The notes beneath the pieces are model-generated. The model had not been told where the DNA came from. It saw only the letters and a program-made list of their open reading frames with translations, and did not search any database. From contig JBHIYN010000001.1 in assembly GCA_041984235.1 (NCBI GenBank), forward strand, positions 164,985 to 228,984: 64,000 nucleotides of DNA, read 5' to 3'. The DNA is from Gammaproteobacteria bacterium. GTDB lineage: Bacteria > Pseudomonadota > Gammaproteobacteria > Ga0077536. This document shows, piece after piece, positions 13,948-19,504 of this stretch. Each line of letters opens with the position of its first letter. The first letter of the stretch is position 1. Both the position numbers and the translations under genes were made by a program.

Positions 13948-14415
13948 CTACCGGTAGCGCGCCGCGGTGATGAACTGTGCGAAGGATTCGCACCACACCA
14001 CCACCGTCGTCCACTGGCCGACGTCGAGGCCCGGCGGAACCGCGACGACGAAGTTCTCGAAGGTCTGCACCGGGCCGACGCGGATCGAGCGGGCCTTGAG
14101 CCGTTCGAATGCCGCACCGTCGTCGACCCACTCGGGGGCGAGGTAGAGCTGGTAGTCGGGGCCGGGGGCGAGCCGGCCCAGCAGGGCGACGCGGTCGTTG
14201 GCGACGAACACCTCGCCTTCGCCCCAATGCAGGAGGTCGCTGCCGGGCAGCCCTCGTTCGAAGCGGCCGCTGAAGCGTGCCTGGTCGCCGAGTGCCTGCA
14301 CCAGGTCGACGGGCGGCGCCGGCGGCGCGGTCAGGATTGGCAGGGCGTAGATGCCGAGCGCGAAGCCCGCGGCGAGCGCGAGCGCGTGGCTGGCGGCGAG
14401 CAGGAGGTAACGCAT
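13948..14415 (-). CDS. DM13-domain protein, secreted (putative electron-transfer domain)
   Basis: It has a signal peptide and DM13-like C-terminal motifs 'GPDYQLYLAPEW' and 'WTTVVVWCESFAQF'. It lies immediately downstream of copA on the same strand. Confidence 0.65.
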   Translation of the reverse strand: MRYLLLAASHALALAAGFALGIYALPILTAPPAPPVDLVQALGDQARFSGRFERGLPGSDLLHWGEGEVFVANDRVALLGRLAPGPDYQLYLAPEWVDDGAAFERLKARSIRVGPVQTFENFVVAVPPGLDVGQWTTVVVWCESFAQFITAARYR

Positions 14416-14464
14416 GACGCGAAGATAGCGCCCGTCGCGGCGCCGGACAATGCGGGCACGGCGT

Positions 14465-16903
14465 CTACAGCGTCAACCGGCGCAGTCGCAGTGCGTTGCC
14501 GATTACCGAGACCGAGCTCAGGCTCATGGCCGCGGCCGCGATCATCGGGCTCAGCACGATGCCGAAGAAGGGGTAGAGCACGCCGGCAGCGACGGGTACC
14601 CCGGCACTGTTGTAAGCGAAGGCGAAGAAGAGGTTCTGGCGGATGTTGGCAATCGTCGCCCGTGACAGGCGCCGCGCGCGCACGATGCCACGCAGGTCGC
14701 CGCGCACCAGGGTCACCGCGGCGCTCTCCATGGCGACATCGGTGCCGGTGCCCATCGCGATGCCGACGTCGGCGCGCGCCAGCGCCGGTGCGTCGTTGAT
14801 GCCGTCGCCGGCCATCGCCACCACCCGGCCTTCCCGCTGCAGCGCGCTGACGCGCTCGGCCTTGTCTTCCGGCAGGACACCGGCGTAGACCTCGTCGATA
14901 CCGAACTCGCGCGCTACCGCCGCGGCCGTGGTCGCATGATCGCCGGTCAGCATGACGATTTGCAGGCCCTCGGCACGCAACGCGGAGACCGCTTCGCGCG
15001 CGCCCTCGCGCAGCGGGTCGGCGACCGCGACCAGTCCCGCGACCTGCCCGTCCTCGGCCACGAACACGACCGTCTCGCCCGCTTCGCGCAGGGCCGCGGC
15101 GCGCGCCTCTAGGGCACCGGCGTCGAGACCGTCCGCGGCCATCAGCGCGGCATTGCCGAGCGCCACCGCGCGCCCTTCGATGCGGCCGCGCACGCCGAGA
15201 CCGGTGGCCGATTCGAACGCTTCGGGTGCGACCGTGGCAATGCCACGCCCGCTGGCGCCGCGCACGATCGCCGCGGCCAGCGGGTGCTCGCTGCCGCGCT
15301 CCAGCGAGGCGGCGATACGCAGCACGTGATCGGCCTCTCCGCCGTTCGCCGCCTCGACCGTGGTCAGGGCCGGCCGCCCCTCGGTCAGGGTGCCGGTCTT
15401 GTCGACCAGCAGGGTGTCGACGCTGCGCAGGACCTCGATCGCCTCGGCATCGCGAAACAGCACGCCGGCCGCCGCGCCCTTGCCGGTCGCGACCATGATC
15501 GACATGGGCGTGGCCAGCCCCAGCGCGCAGGGGCAGGCAATGATGAGTACCGCGACGCTGTTGACCAGTGCATGCGCCATCGCCGGCGGCGGACCGAACA
15601 GCGCCCACACGGCGAACGTCACGATGGCGATGCCGATCACCGTTGGCACGAACCAGCCGGCGACGACGTCGGCGAGACGCTGAATCGGCGCCCGGCTGCG
15701 CTGCGCTTCTGCGACCAGGGTAACGATGCGCGAGAGCAGGGTGTCGGCGCCGACCCGGCGCGCCTCCATGACCAGCCCGCCGCGGCCGTTGACGGTGGCA
15801 CCGGTGACGTCATCGCCGGGCCCTTTCTCGACCGGTACCGCCTCGCCCGTGATCATCGACTCGTCGACCGCACTGGTCCCATCCACGACGACACCGTCGA
15901 CCGGGATCTTCTCGCCCGGCCGCACGCGCAGCCGATCGCCGACCGCCACCGCGTCCAGTGCGACGTCGTGTTCGTCGCCCGCGGCGTCGATGCGGCGCGC
16001 GGTCGCCGGGGCCAGGTCCATCAGCTCGCGAATGGCGGTGCCGGTGTGGGCGCGCGCGCGCAGCTCGAGCACCTGGCCGACCAGGATCAGCGTAACGATG
16101 ACGGCGGCCGATTCGAAGTACACGGGGACGGCGCCATCCGCACCACGGAAGGCGGCCGGGAAGAGCTCCGGCGCCAGGGTGGCCACGGTGCTGTAGCCGA
16201 AAGCCACGCCGACCCCCAGACCGATCAGGGTGAACATGTTCGGGCTGCGATTCACGACCGAGCGCCAGGCACGCTGGTAGAACGGCCAGCCCGCCCACAG
16301 GCACACCGGCACCGCCAGCGCGAGCTCCAGCCAGGGGCGGACACCGTACCCGAGCGCGCTGGAAACCGGGTGTCCCGGCAGCATGTCGAACATCGTCAGC
16401 GCGACCAGCGGCACCGAGAGCAGGGCGGCGAGGACGAGGCGCCGGCTCATGTCGTCGAGCTCGGGATTGGCCTCGTCGACGGTGATCGTGGTCGGCTCCA
16501 GTGCCATGCCGCACAGCGGGCAGTCACCCGCTTCGTCGCGCACGATCTCGGGATGCATGGGGCAGGTCCACTGCGTGCGCCGCGCAGGCTGCGGCAGACC
16601 CTTGACCTCCAGCGCCATGCCGCACCTGGGGCAGTCGCCCGGACCGACCTGCTCGACCTCGGGGTCCATGGGGCAGGTGTAGACGGCGTCGGCCGGGCCG
16701 TCCTGCGCGGCTGCGCGCAGCGCGGGATCGAGGTAGCGTTGCGGGTCGGCCGCGAACTTCTCGCGGCAGCCGTTGCAGCAGAAGTGGTACACGGTGCCGG
16801 CGTGCTCGTGCCGGTGCGTGCTGTCGGTGCTGACCTGCATACCGCAGACCGGATCGCGGAGCTCCTCCGCGCCGGGCTGCAGCGGGCTCGTCGACTGGTT
16901 CAT
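14465..16903 (-). CDS. copA: copper-translocating P1B-type ATPase
   Basis: An N-terminal YHS-type domain ('DPVCGMQV...[12 protein letters not shown]') and two 'TCPM(D/H)PE...GDCP(R/L)CGMALE' metal-binding repeats are present. ATPase hallmarks include the transmembrane CPC motif '[13 protein letters not shown]', 'DKTGTLT' and '[10 protein letters not shown]'. The start is at 'MNQSTSPL' with a GAGGA SD. Confidence 0.9.
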
Positions 16904-16913
16904 GAGTGCGTCC

Positions 16914-17195
16914 TCAGCAGTTGCAGTTCTTGTCGAACACGCGCACGAGCTCGGCAATCTTCTCGGCGCGTTCGCCGGCGTCGCGGCTGTCGAAGGCGTC
17001 GGCCACACAGGTCTCGATGTGCGATGCGAGCAGCAGGCTGCCGGCCTTGCCGAGCGCCGCACGCGCCGCCGCGATCTGCAGCAGGATGTCGACGCAGTAT
17101 CGATCCTCGTCGACCATGCGCTGGATGCCGCCGACCTGTCCGGCTACGCGGCGCAGGCGGGTTTCGATCTGGCGTTTCACGTCGTTGCTGCGCAT
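16914..17195 (-). CDS. csoR: CsoR/RcnR-family metal-sensing transcriptional repressor
   Basis: A 93-aa protein with the DUF156 fold pattern, a conserved 'YCVD' motif and a C-terminal CNC. It is immediately upstream of copA on the same strand. Confidence 0.8.
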
Positions 17196-17215
17196 CGTTC
17201 TCGCTCCCTGTTCTG

Positions 17216-17232
17216 ATACCCCATGGGGGTAT
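17216..17232. promoter_or_regulatory. candidate CsoR operator: inverted repeat ATACCCC-ATG-GGGGTAT
   Basis: A 7-3-7 perfect inverted repeat lies 21 nt upstream of the csoR start codon in the csoR/ribA-paralog divergent region. It matches the GC-rich palindrome style of known CsoR operators. Confidence 0.6.
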
Positions 17233-17378
17233 TATAGCCGAAGCCTGAGGGCCCCTGGCTACACTCGGCGCACGCGATCGCCGACAATGCGGCCTGCATG
17301 TCACCACTGGGCCGTCGGCGTTGCCGGCGCGTACCCGATTCGTCACCCGCCGCAACGCCATCAGCAGGAAATTTCACC

Positions 17379-18173
17379 GTGTTCAGCTACGTCGACGTCT
17401 CCATCCGTGAAAAGCTCGAGGCCGGCGGCCTGCTCGTGACCCTGAACCGGTCCGCCGAGGTCGTTGCCGGCGACGATCGCGAGGCGTTCATCTCGGTGCT
17501 GGGGCCGGTGCCGATCCCGCGCCTGATCGGTGACACCGAGGTCATGCTCGAGTGGTACCCGTTCGTGCGCAGGACCGAGCTCTCGGCCGTGCTGGACGCC
17601 GCCCGCCAGGTCGACGACGGGCACTCCGAGGCTTTCCGGCAGCTCCTGCACAGCTCGATGTCGGTCAACTCGGTCTTCGCCCTGCCCGGTTTCCGGGCTG
17701 CCGACCGGCCCCTGGTGCGCCTGCATTCGTGCTGCCTGACGGGCGACGTCTTCGGCTCGCGGCGCTGCGATTGCGGGCCGCAGCTCGAGGCTGCGTTCGA
17801 GCAGATCTTCGACGTCGGTGCCGGTGCGGTGGTCTACATGAGCGGCCACGAGGGGCGCGGCATCGGCCTGTGGGCGAAAGCGGTGACCTACCTGCTGCAG
17901 GATGCCGGCCACAACACTTACGAAGCGAACACCGCGCTCGGCCTGCCCGAGGACTCGCGCGACTTCAGCGATGCCGCGGTGGTGCTGCGCTACCTGCTCG
18001 CCGGCCGGGGCCTGCGCCTGCTGTCGAACAACCCGGACAAGCGCGCCCAGCTCGAAGCCCACGGCCAGCCGGTGCTGGAGGCGGTGTCACTGGTGGCCGG
18101 CCTGTGTGAGCACAACCTGCGCTACATCCGCGCCAAGCGCAGCAAGGGCCACCTGATCTCCGACGACGTCTGA
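17379..18173 (+). CDS. ribA: GTP cyclohydrolase II (RibA-like paralog)
   Basis: The zinc-binding motif 'CLTGDVFGSRRCDCGPQLE' and 'GHEGRGIGLWAKAVTYLLQDAGHNTYEAN' are present. A GTG start with an AGGAA SD is chosen; track ORF 17298..18173 is an alternative. It is divergent from csoR. Confidence 0.7.
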   Translation: MFSYVDVSIREKLEAGGLLVTLNRSAEVVAGDDREAFISVLGPVPIPRLIGDTEVMLEWYPFVRRTELSAVLDAARQVDDGHSEAFRQLLHSSMSVNSVFALPGFRAADRPLVRLHSCCLTGDVFGSRRCDCGPQLEAAFEQIFDVGAGAVVYMSGHEGRGIGLWAKAVTYLLQDAGHNTYEANTALGLPEDSRDFSDAAVVLRYLLAGRGLRLLSNNPDKRAQLEAHGQPVLEAVSLVAGLCEHNLRYIRAKRSKGHLISDDV

Positions 18174-18293
18174 AGCCCGGCAAAGGGCGCCTGCGGTTCA
18201 GCAGGCGTTCACCTCGCCGGTCGTAGCCTGCGTGTCACGGCCGGCGCCCTGTCGGCGCCCGGCCGGTGAAGTCAAATCGCAAAGGAGACGACC

Positions 18294-18752
18294 ATGACTC
18301 GCAAGCTGGGTAAATCGCTGACGATCGCCGGGGCCGGCTTGTGCCTCGGCCTGTTCGCCGGTGTCGCCGGCGCGCACGAGACCGGGCACCGCGACTGCGA
18401 AAAGCAGGTGCACGAGCATCACCACACCCACTACTACGCGCCGCCGCCCGCGCCGGTAGCCTACGCGCCGGCGCCGCAGGCGCCTGCCTACGGCGGCGGC
18501 TACGCCCCCGGCTATGGCTACGCGCCCGCTCCGGCGCCGGCCTACGGCTACGGTCCGCGCCACGCCCCGGCACCGCGCTACGCGGCGGCCAGCTACAGCC
18601 CGTCACCCAATTTCGGCAATGCCGTGGGTGGTGCGCTGGGCGGCTTTGTCGGCTCCAAGATCGGCAAGGGCTCGGGCAACAGCGCGGCGACTGCCGCAGG
18701 TGCGGTGCTGGGCTACATGCTGGGCGGCCACGTCGGCACCAACTGGCGCTGA
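18294..18752 (+). CDS. secreted His-rich / Pro-Ala-Tyr-repeat protein with C-terminal glycine-zipper domain
   Basis: A strong SD 'aaaggagacgacc' precedes the ATG. The protein has a signal peptide, a His cluster 'HETGHRDCEKQVHEHHHTHYY', low-complexity 'YAPAPAPAYGYG' repeats, and a glycine-zipper (GxxxG run) C-terminus 'GGALGGFVGSKIGKGSGNSAATAAGAVLGYMLGG'. Confidence 0.7.
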   Translation: MTRKLGKSLTIAGAGLCLGLFAGVAGAHETGHRDCEKQVHEHHHTHYYAPPPAPVAYAPAPQAPAYGGGYAPGYGYAPAPAPAYGYGPRHAPAPRYAAASYSPSPNFGNAVGGALGGFVGSKIGKGSGNSAATAAGAVLGYMLGGHVGTNWR

Positions 18753-18780
18753 GCGCCGGCGGTCTCGCCCGGGGCGGTCA

Positions 18781-18804
18781 CGGGGCGGGCTCAGTCCCGC
18801 CCCG
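18781..18804. terminator. GC-rich hairpin in a convergent intergenic gap (bidirectional terminator candidate)
   Basis: 'cggggcggg-ctcagt-cccgccccg' forms a stem of 8 to 9 bp between the glycine-zipper gene end (18752) and the ABM gene end (18814). There is no T-tract, as is usual in high-GC genomes. Confidence 0.45.
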
Positions 18805-18813
18805 TGGCGGCGC

Positions 18814-19107
18814 TCAGCCGTCGAACTTGTCGTAGTAGAGGATTGTCGGCGGCGCGGTCAGCATGCTGCCGAGCGCCTCCATGACGCCGGTCTCGGTGCG
18901 CCACTGGATGTACTTTTCCTGGTGCTGGCGCGAATCCCAGATCTCGTAGAACAGCACGTGACCGGGCTTGTCCTGGTCGATCCAGATATCGAACAGCTGA
19001 CAGCCGTCGTAGGCGCGCGTGTCGGGCGCAGCACCCTTGACCGCAGCCAGGAAGTCGTCGAATTTCGCCGGGTCGACCTGCAGGTCGAGCGTGACGCATA
19101 CCGCCAT
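18814..19107 (-). CDS. antibiotic-biosynthesis-monooxygenase (ABM) domain protein / putative quinol monooxygenase
   Basis: A 97-aa protein from 'MAVCVTLDLQVDPAKFDDFLAAVK' consistent with the ferredoxin-like ABM fold. A GAGGGG SD precedes the start. Confidence 0.6.
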   Translation of the reverse strand: MAVCVTLDLQVDPAKFDDFLAAVKGAAPDTRAYDGCQLFDIWIDQDKPGHVLFYEIWDSRQHQEKYIQWRTETGVMEALGSMLTAPPTILYYDKFDG

Positions 19108-19240
19108 GGGAGTTCCCCTCGATTTGGTTGGATGATCGGATTGAGCGGGGCAAGATGACACACTTCGCGGGACGCGAACAGGGTGCGCAGCGGTGCGCGC
19201 CGCGCCGGCGCAAGGCCGTGGCGGGGCGGCGGGGTACCGC

Positions 19241-19504
19241 TCAGGCGATGTCCGGATGGGTGGCGATGAAGTGCTTCATCACGCTCGTCAGCTTCTCGAC
19301 CTCGGCGCTGTCGCCGCGGCTGGCGGCGGCCGCGATGTCGTCCAGGATCATGCGCTTGATCATGCGCTCTCCGGCTTCGCTCTCGCACAGGTAGGCGGCC
19401 AGCTCGGCGGCGATGATCGGCGGCACGTGCTCGTGCTCGGCAATGGCGTCGAGCTCGTCCTCGGTCAGGTGCAGGTACTCGATGCAGTCACGCAGACAAA
19501 TCAT
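19241..19504 (-). CDS. hypothetical small acidic protein (87 aa)
   Basis: An intact ORF with an acidic, helical-looking sequence ('LTEDELDAIAEHEHVPPIIAAELAAYLCESEAGE'). It lies between the alpha/beta hydrolase and ABM genes on the same strand. Family not recognised. Confidence 0.45.
   Translation of the reverse strand: MICLRDCIEYLHLTEDELDAIAEHEHVPPIIAAELAAYLCESEAGERMIKRMILDDIAAAASRGDSAEVEKLTSVMKHFIATHPDIA

Follow-up and report, generated by a model that had tools for sequence, protein, structure and literature searches.

Does a gene that lies beside a copper module also belong to it? The locus that raises this question is found in a stretch of 64,000 nucleotides (nt) from a Gammaproteobacteria bacterium of the lineage Ga0077536 (assembly GCA_041984235.1, contig JBHIYN010000001.1, positions 164,985 to 228,984 of the forward strand), here called the window. 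In this window DM13, copA and csoR on the minus strand are followed by a divergent GTP cyclohydrolase II (ribA) paralogue and then by the gene under study, the target, which encodes a protein of 152 amino acids (aa). A sequence-only reading of this DNA had placed the ribA paralogue, divergent from csoR (16914-17195, minus strand), 120 nt 5' of the target, which is correct (the paralogue ends at 18173), and had proposed a metal-binding envelope protein tied to the copper genes. We come to a different picture. The reading that we prefer, and to which we give a probability of roughly 0.55, is that of a PhoP-type-regulated, non-lipidated SlyB-like glycine-zipper protein with a cation-binding, His-rich periplasmic tail. 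The gene, its domain architecture, its family, a conserved promoter motif and the absence of a conserved copper linkage are established, and the neighbourhood of the copper genes appears to be a chance feature of this single genome.

The main evidence comes from the promoter (Table 1). Alignment of the upstream regions of family members gave a block composed of a direct repeat, RTTCAG-N5-RTTCA(C/G), a spacer of 11 nt and a hexamer TAnnnT, which spans 18196-18229 in the window and is found 67-115 nt upstream of the ATG in all of the 24 independent family loci. In the repeat the TTCAG and TTCA cores, and in the -10 hexamer positions A2 and T6, reach 2 bits of information, the 11-nt spacing together with TAnnnT is kept in 19 of 21 aligned loci, and identity amounts to 88% in the hexamers as against 27%, the level of random sequence, in the flanks. 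The degenerate pattern occurs 28 times in 389 kb when both strands are counted; chance alone would give about 4 occurrences in total and about 0.01 in the upstream windows concerned. Three lipoprotein-type glycine-zipper genes (loci L033, L044 and L045) also have the repeat upstream. A direct repeat of hexamers with 11-bp periodicity at the place of the -35 element is the geometry of an activator of the OmpR/PhoB family. A generic sigma-70 scan found no -35/-10 pair at the target promoter, as is expected of an activator-dependent promoter. We also considered a sigma-E-type promoter and rejected it, since spacing and direct-repeat arrangement are those expected of a winged-helix dimer and not of the -35/-10 pair of an extracytoplasmic function (ECF) sigma factor.

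The repeat matches the PhoP consensus of Pseudomonas aeruginosa, GTTCAGNNNNNRTTCAG, which was validated in that species by electrophoretic mobility shift assay and mutagenesis (PMC3156716), as well as the half-site G/ATTCAG obtained by chromatin immunoprecipitation sequencing (ChIP-seq) of P. aeruginosa PhoP (PMC7916210). With a Pseudomonas-type PhoP box defined as a GTTCAG-N5-RTTCAG repeat at the -35 region, positions 18196-18212 represent such a box. PhoP directly controls slyB (PA1053) in P. aeruginosa, where slyB contributes to an intact outer membrane in the presence of polymyxin B and sodium dodecyl sulfate (PMC7916210), and a 2026 preprint counts slyB among the core PhoPQ genes that it summarises for E. 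coli, Salmonella, Shigella, P. aeruginosa and Yersinia (bioRxiv 10.64898/2026.06.08.730324). On two contigs of alphaproteobacterial metagenome-assembled genomes (MAGs), an OmpR-family response regulator with 43% identity to E. coli PhoP is encoded within ~1.7 kb of a zipper lipoprotein gene of the 17-kDa-antigen type (L046, 3696-4337; L035, 704-1345).

The reading frame 18294-18752 is a genuine gene. Homologues with 35-54% identity identify it as the coding frame and not as one of the overlapping GC-rich open reading frames (ORFs); the G+C content at third codon positions of 0.86 is similar to that of the neighbouring genes, and an identical 152-aa product has been called on the NCBI assembly GCA_041987945.1 (contig JBHIVR010000002.1) and on several Logan contigs. 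The product consists of the four parts that had been recognised in the sequence-only reading, namely a signal peptide, a His cluster, a Pro/Ala/Tyr stretch and a glycine zipper. Export, also part of that reading, agrees with a predicted signal peptide that has a basic n-region (R3, K4 and K7) followed by a hydrophobic core, and with sites of the AXA type for signal peptidase I (SPase I) that are kept across the family. Cys17 does not qualify as a lipobox cysteine: it is preceded by A-G-L (Leu at position -1), lies within the hydrophobic core and is absent in P0005. The His cluster has 7 His in 21 residues at a background of 2.0% His, and the maximum in 16 neighbouring proteins is 4 per 21-aa window. 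The P/A/Y-rich linker that follows differs in length and sequence among homologues. Degenerate tandem repeats of 30/36 nt at 18488-18582 encode part of this region, which suggests that linker length changes by slippage.

The C-terminal part of the target matches Pfam PF05433 at residues 110-148 with 28.1 bits (gathering cutoff 24.2, E 2e-6), and by this profile score the target is a bona fide member of that family. The zipper glycines form the series G108-G112-G116-G120-G124-G128 and G136-G140-G144-G148, in two GxxxG segments that a short polar turn connects. An AlphaFold2 (AF2) model computed on an alignment of 23 sequences predicts helices at 107-122 and 131-145 and coil elsewhere, at low confidence: the mean predicted local distance difference test score (pLDDT) is 53, too low for meaningful fold searches. 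Scans of the target against Pfam and NCBIfam (E <= 0.1) returned only PF05433 and PRK11280, with no profile match to known periplasmic metal-binding families (CopC, CusF, PcoE/SilE, ZinT, RcnB and others). The search for the glycine-zipper family profile that had been suggested in the sequence-only reading thus gave PF05433 above its cutoff, and the profile of the target family in turn matches the hairpin of SlyB.

SlyB of E. coli (PDB 7OJF/7OJG) is the closest solved structure. Its hairpin is homologous to that of the target, and the match of the family profile to residues 55-104 of 7ojf_A has an E value of 3.5e-7. Both are small envelope proteins, and the PhoP-type site of the target finds its parallel in the direct control of P. 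aeruginosa slyB by PhoP. However, SlyB is a lipidated outer-membrane lipoprotein, whereas the target has no lipobox and is predicted to be non-lipidated. SlyB, with 155 aa, continues after the hairpin for about 50 residues, its periplasmic C-terminal domain, whereas the target ends 4 residues past it (148 of 152) and, unlike SlyB, has a His/Pro/Tyr-rich disordered tail of about 78 residues before it. Other zipper proteins are more distant. The 17-kDa antigen, RT0821 and Lpp0805 proteins share the zipper, but the target has neither PF16998 nor a lipobox and its His-rich tail is absent there; the architecture of lipobox, zipper and 17-kDa antigen was seen in the distant loci L034-L046. YcfJ (PRK11280) is the sole NCBIfam match (E 1.8e-4); the target scores 21 bits, far below the cutoff of 99, and is no equivalog.

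Asr, the periplasmic acid-shock protein of E. coli, is a further candidate for comparison, which we take to be His/Lys-rich, to lack a membrane anchor and a Tyr/Pro-rich region, and to be unrelated to the target in sequence, as it appears. Asr is reported to be Sec-exported and disordered, to be induced by an envelope or acid signal, and to aid the integrity of the outer membrane (PMC10746267, citing Ren et al. 2022). In E. coli, ycfJ is one of the genes that acid induces most strongly (PMC10746267). In Vibrio, a glycine-zipper gene is part of a locus that is controlled by an OmpR-family regulator and gives resistance to cationic peptides (colistin) (bioRxiv 10.1101/2024.10.10.617683); the likeness concerns the locus, and the regulator, RstA, and the gene neighbourhood differ from those of the target. 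In its mode of action the target probably comes closest to a SlyB paralogue, and a functional resemblance to Asr is possible.

A profile of 23 family sequences was compared with 1.84 billion cluster representatives; the number of clusters found was 13 at E <= 1e-30 and rose to 209 at E <= 1e-10 and to 2257 at E <= 1e-3. The hairpin of the core family is nearly invariant (SPNFGNAVGGALGGxxGSxIGxGSGxxAATAAGAVxGYxxGG; 16 columns do not vary at all in 23 sequences). From the signal peptide to the hairpin, the tail varies in sequence and is steady in composition, with 6-26% His, 8-20% Tyr and 5-22% Arg plus Lys, and a net charge of 0 to +14 if His is not counted. Hundreds of diverged clusters maintain the enrichment of His. 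As the family retains its His-rich segment, the loss of the cluster in orthologues, which the sequence-only reading had named as an argument against its proposal, is not observed. In the closest subfamily a single Cys recurs beside an acidic residue (HRDCE, QQCE, HHCE, RGCD, EDCD), as does a run of the form (V/E)HHH(H)YY; to judge from the residues, both motifs are compatible with a metal site.

Every member stems from a metagenome or a MAG, in most cases with the label Gammaproteobacteria, and the family is confined to uncultured Proteobacteria. Database searches and an exact cluster look-up returned solely MAG and metagenome proteins under names such as 'hypothetical', 'glycine zipper 2TM', 'surface antigen' or 'YcfJ', and none from a named or cultured organism. 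We found no paper that joins 'glycine zipper' and 'histidine-rich' with the periplasm and none that connects such a zipper with copper or CsoR; the searchable literature yielded no mention of the family or of its regulatory link.

To see which other genes stand behind the same promoter pattern, metagenome contigs were scanned for RTTCAG-N5-GTTCAC-N11-TAATCT, and the first ORF 27-88 nt downstream that is preceded by a Shine-Dalgarno (SD) sequence was taken. The scan gave 33 sites, about 13 of them without a plausible ORF, roughly the level expected by chance. Eight sites lie upstream of members of the target family. Three precede RcnB-family proteins (PF11776, E 2e-19 and 1.7e-15) whose N-terminal parts are rich in His, Arg and Asp, and another five precede other small exported His/Arg/Tyr-rich proteins (L056, L066, L070, L077 and L082), one with PXPV repeats and one with Big_7. 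The matches outside the family represent independent evidence that small exported His/Arg-rich proteins form a set marked by this site. The RcnB-family genes (L053, L063 and L074) start 27-29 nt downstream of the pattern. Their products resemble the target in being small and exported, in the His/Arg/Asp-rich composition of the metagenomic members and in the promoter pattern; they have no sequence homology to it and carry a C-terminal domain of their own instead of a glycine zipper. We found no paper that links RcnB with PhoP. The remaining four sites precede genes for membrane fatty-acid desaturases (PF00487; L064, L065, L071 and L075). A desaturase gene also lies 3 kb from the family gene at L014.

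We assume the following course of events. The protein would be exported by Sec, its signal peptide would be cleaved, and a non-lipidated protein would result. A PhoP-type regulator of the OmpR family most likely binds GTTCAG-N5-GTTCAC in the place of the -35 element and activates transcription, and the inducing signal would be limitation of divalent cations (Mg2+/Ca2+), acid or cationic-peptide stress rather than copper via CsoR. The GxxxG hairpin would insert into an envelope membrane and self-associate there, by analogy to SlyB probably at the periplasmic face of the outer membrane, and would hold the disordered His/Tyr/Pro-rich tail in the periplasm as a module for binding cations and protons. 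Regulator identity, membrane location, oligomerisation and tail ligand are what we infer in this scheme. Two versions of the function of the tail can be formulated. It may bind Ni, Co, Zn or Cu that have turned harmful when Mg2+ is scarce, or it may become protonated and thereby serve as a protein polycation on anionic lipids. For the subfamily of the window we favour transition-metal binding, given the conserved Cys, the acidic residues, the His runs and the co-regulated RcnB-like proteins; the net charge of the target tail, 0 without His, likewise fits metal binding better than a polycation. The abundance of Arg and Lys in most members speaks for the polycation version, which would share the theme of charge neutralisation with OprH. 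It also fits the charge-neutralising PhoP targets arn and the alanyl-phosphatidylglycerol genes ppgS-ppgH (PMC7916210).

Several points weigh against the assignment to a PhoP-type system and to cation binding. A search of the window with E. coli PhoP as query found no OmpR-family regulator, and phoPQ was not located for this MAG. The regulator is assigned by similarity of a motif to that of a distant species, and another OmpR-family regulator with the same half-site preference would be possible. The eight family matches of the promoter scan are circular, since the pattern was derived from the family, and only the matches outside the family count as independent. The neutral tail of the target, if His is left aside, speaks against the polycation version, and the AF2 model of the target, a prediction, is of low confidence. 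All members are known from MAGs and metagenomes, and the function attributed to each of them is deduced. Finally, a downstream partner that is conserved in relatives is missing here, and the copy in the window may not work like theirs. This partner, an exported helical protein of about 135-151 aa that has four Cys and falls into no Pfam family, is the same-strand downstream neighbour in seven relatives as detected by tblastn (L007, 8553-9008; L010, 3326-3781; L014, 7558-7965; L019, L021, L023 and L025). The four-Cys gene had no match in the window, where an oppositely oriented ABM gene takes the equivalent place. L048, outside this comparison, has a gene of 153 aa at the position of the partner.

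The alternative that survives best is a periplasmic buffer for Ni, Co or Zn under a metal-sensing two-component system of the OmpR family that shares the GTTCAG half-site, in place of the Mg2+-sensing PhoPQ. PhoP identity is derived from motif similarity, the closest subfamily has His6-like runs, a conserved single Cys and acidic residues, and proteins of the RcnB family, described in Pfam as 'nickel/cobalt transporter regulator', stand behind the same promoter pattern. However, the repeat matches the motif obtained by ChIP-seq for PhoP, and the published sites of metal-sensing regulators of the OmpR type (CusR/CopR, PmrA, ColR and CzcR) appear to differ from it. Besides, no metal transporter or sensor gene is conserved beside any family member, and many members are rich in Arg and Lys, which are not metal ligands. 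We therefore regard this alternative as unlikely, although it deserves to be kept in mind.

A purely structural envelope protein, in which the tail is a spacer or a tether to peptidoglycan or lipid that binds no cations, or a modulator that feeds back on the sensor kinase, appears still less probable to us. Pro-rich, PXPV-like repeats of variable length would suit a spacer, in Salmonella a negative effect of SlyB on PhoPQ regulation was once suggested, and Asr shows that disordered basic periplasmic proteins can be chaperones (PMC10746267). What argues against such a role is the enrichment of His across hundreds of diverged clusters, which points to selection on proton- or metal-binding chemistry.

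The proposal that the position of the gene invites, a periplasmic or outer-membrane copper chaperone or sponge that is part of the csoR-copA module and co-regulated with it, has little left in its favour. The target is physically close to csoR-copA-DM13 in this genome, its Cys and His cluster could bind Cu, and two glycine-zipper 2TM genes of Erwinia amylovora are induced by copper shock together with spy, which looks like general envelope stress (PMC12542790). Against this stands the regulation. A search of the window for TACCC-N3-7-GGGTA and for the 17-mer of the CsoR operator with up to 3 mismatches found a single CsoR box, that of csoR, and nothing else, and control of the target by CsoR was rejected for this reason; the conserved promoter of the target is of a non-CsoR type. 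The operator sits in the 183-nt divergent region common to csoR and the ribA paralogue. The target also has no copper-protein domain of Pfam or NCBIfam.

The genomic context of the homologues gives the same answer. When CopA, CsoR, DM13 and other neighbours were compared by tblastn with 46 loci, no CopA or CsoR was detected within 6-8 kb on either side of any non-identical homologue, and the gene tables of three further loci (one of only 1.1 kb) contained none either; altogether, copA/csoR is near none of about 30 distinct homologue loci with usable flanks. In the close relatives L007 and L023 the luciferase-like gene and the ribA paralogue, each about 80% identical to its counterpart in the window, are not separated by DM13-copA-csoR. 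As the block is missing at this syntenic position, it represents an indel particular to the genome of the window. Here it occupies 13948-17195 on the minus strand between the luciferase-like gene and the ribA paralogue; CopA carries the N-terminal domains YHS and HMBD, and the DM13 'electron transfer' gene comes after copA. Recent horizontal transfer of the block was considered and set aside: G+C is uniform at about 0.70, so the event is not obviously recent. Even the adjacency of ribA paralogue and target is kept only among close relatives, and an ABC-transporter insert of 5 kb breaks it in L007, L021 and L048. The ribA paralogue itself (17379-18173, plus strand) encodes a GTP cyclohydrolase II paralogue of 264 aa in which the first ~130 residues are without a Pfam match. 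Its counterparts in related MAGs have about 80% identity to it and lie 3' of a luciferase-like monooxygenase gene. A copper function of this kind is thus very improbable in our view. From the sequence-only reading the exported envelope protein with its conserved His cluster can be retained, and a 'metal sponge' is possible, but neither copper nor co-regulation with copA is indicated, and the functional tie to the copper module is not supported. The more general lesson is that a position next to a metal module can be deceptive if only one genome is considered.

A membrane-active toxin of the entericidin or bacteriocin kind, forming a pore through its glycine zipper, is hardly credible, for although the protein is small and exported and glycine zippers are known in pore-forming peptides, the neighbourhood has no conserved genes for partners in immunity, export or lysis, the gene sits on the chromosome and keeps its synteny in relatives, tblastn found no plasmid homologues, and the hairpin is nearest to that of the structural protein SlyB.

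Table 1. Features of the target gene, its product and its surroundings; positions refer to the window.
Feature	Position	Strand	Remarks
CsoR operator ATACCCCATGGGGGTAT	17216..17232		perfect 17 bp, 20 nt upstream of the csoR start; context, limit of the copper module
PhoP-type site GTTCAG-caggc-GTTCAC	18196..18212	+	replaces the -35 element; sole zero-mismatch copy in 64 kb
-10-like hexamer TAGCCT	18224..18229	+	exactly 11 nt past the repeat
Stem-loop of the 5' untranslated region, GGCCGGCGCC / GGCGCC(C)GGCC	18239..18264	+	leaves the SD sequence unpaired
Shine-Dalgarno sequence AAGGAG	18282..18287	+	6 nt 5' of the ATG; kept in homologues
Coding sequence	18294..18752	+	ATG start, 152 aa, stop included
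Signal peptide, aa 1-27	18294..18374	+	predicted SPase I cut AGA|HE; no lipobox; read from sequence
His cluster HETGHRDCEKQVHEHHHTHYY, aa 28-48	18375..18437	+	7 His, 1 Cys
Pro/Ala/Tyr/Gly-rich disordered linker, aa 49-104	18438..18605	+	no secondary structure in AF2
Glycine-zipper 2TM helical hairpin SPNFGNAVGGALGGFVGSKIGKGSGNSAATAAGAVLGYMLGGHVG, aa 105-148	18606..18737	+	Pfam PF05433, AF2, SlyB profile match
GC-rich 11-bp stem-loop	18779..18806		between the convergent target and ABM genes; terminator-like, without a U tract

The target is a free-standing transcription unit. Its predicted 5' untranslated region (UTR), 18236-18296, folds with a minimum free energy (MFE) of -27.1 kcal/mol (z -2.6 against shuffled sequences), and a 5'-proximal hairpin is predicted in most UTRs of the homologues, with weak individual z-scores; this stem-loop may, for example, stabilise the mRNA. 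On the 3' side, the intergenic region of 63 nt (18753-18815) has an MFE of -44.4 kcal/mol (z -2.5). A scan for terminators with a U tract did not detect the stem-loop in it, and an Rfam scan of 16800-19300 (E <= 1) gave no match. The duplex of the SD sequence with the anti-SD sequence amounts to -8.7 kcal/mol for the target, compared with -7.4 for csoR, -4.3 for the ribA paralogue (ribA2) and -8.0 for the ABM gene, and AAGGAG is found upstream of nearly all homologues. The SD sequence is thus strong, as had been noted; it is not the strongest of the region, since two luciferase-like genes within 8 kb on either side reach -10.3 and -11.9 kcal/mol.

If the scope is widened beyond the target, a PhoP-type regulator in many uncultured Proteobacteria could induce a whole class of small, exported, disordered His/Arg/Tyr-rich proteins that would act as surrogates or buffers of periplasmic cations at low Mg2+/Ca2+. 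We put this forward tentatively, as something possible rather than probable. The class would comprise the zipper-anchored family, His-rich RcnB-like proteins and several unnamed families, and its members might be pH-switchable polycations on anionic lipids or might capture Ni, Co or Zn, which Mg2+ transporters would otherwise import by mistake; feedback on the acidic patch of the sensor is conceivable as well.

SlyB-type zipper proteins have been tied to outer-membrane stress tolerance only recently, and most paralogues are unstudied. The family described here keeps the SlyB hairpin and a PhoP-type promoter and swaps the lipid anchor and the region after the hairpin for a His-rich disordered tail. 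If our reading is true, it would add a protein-based arm of cation handling to the PhoP-type response, and it would provide RcnB-like and glycine-zipper proteins of unknown function with a testable physiological context, namely the limitation of divalent cations.

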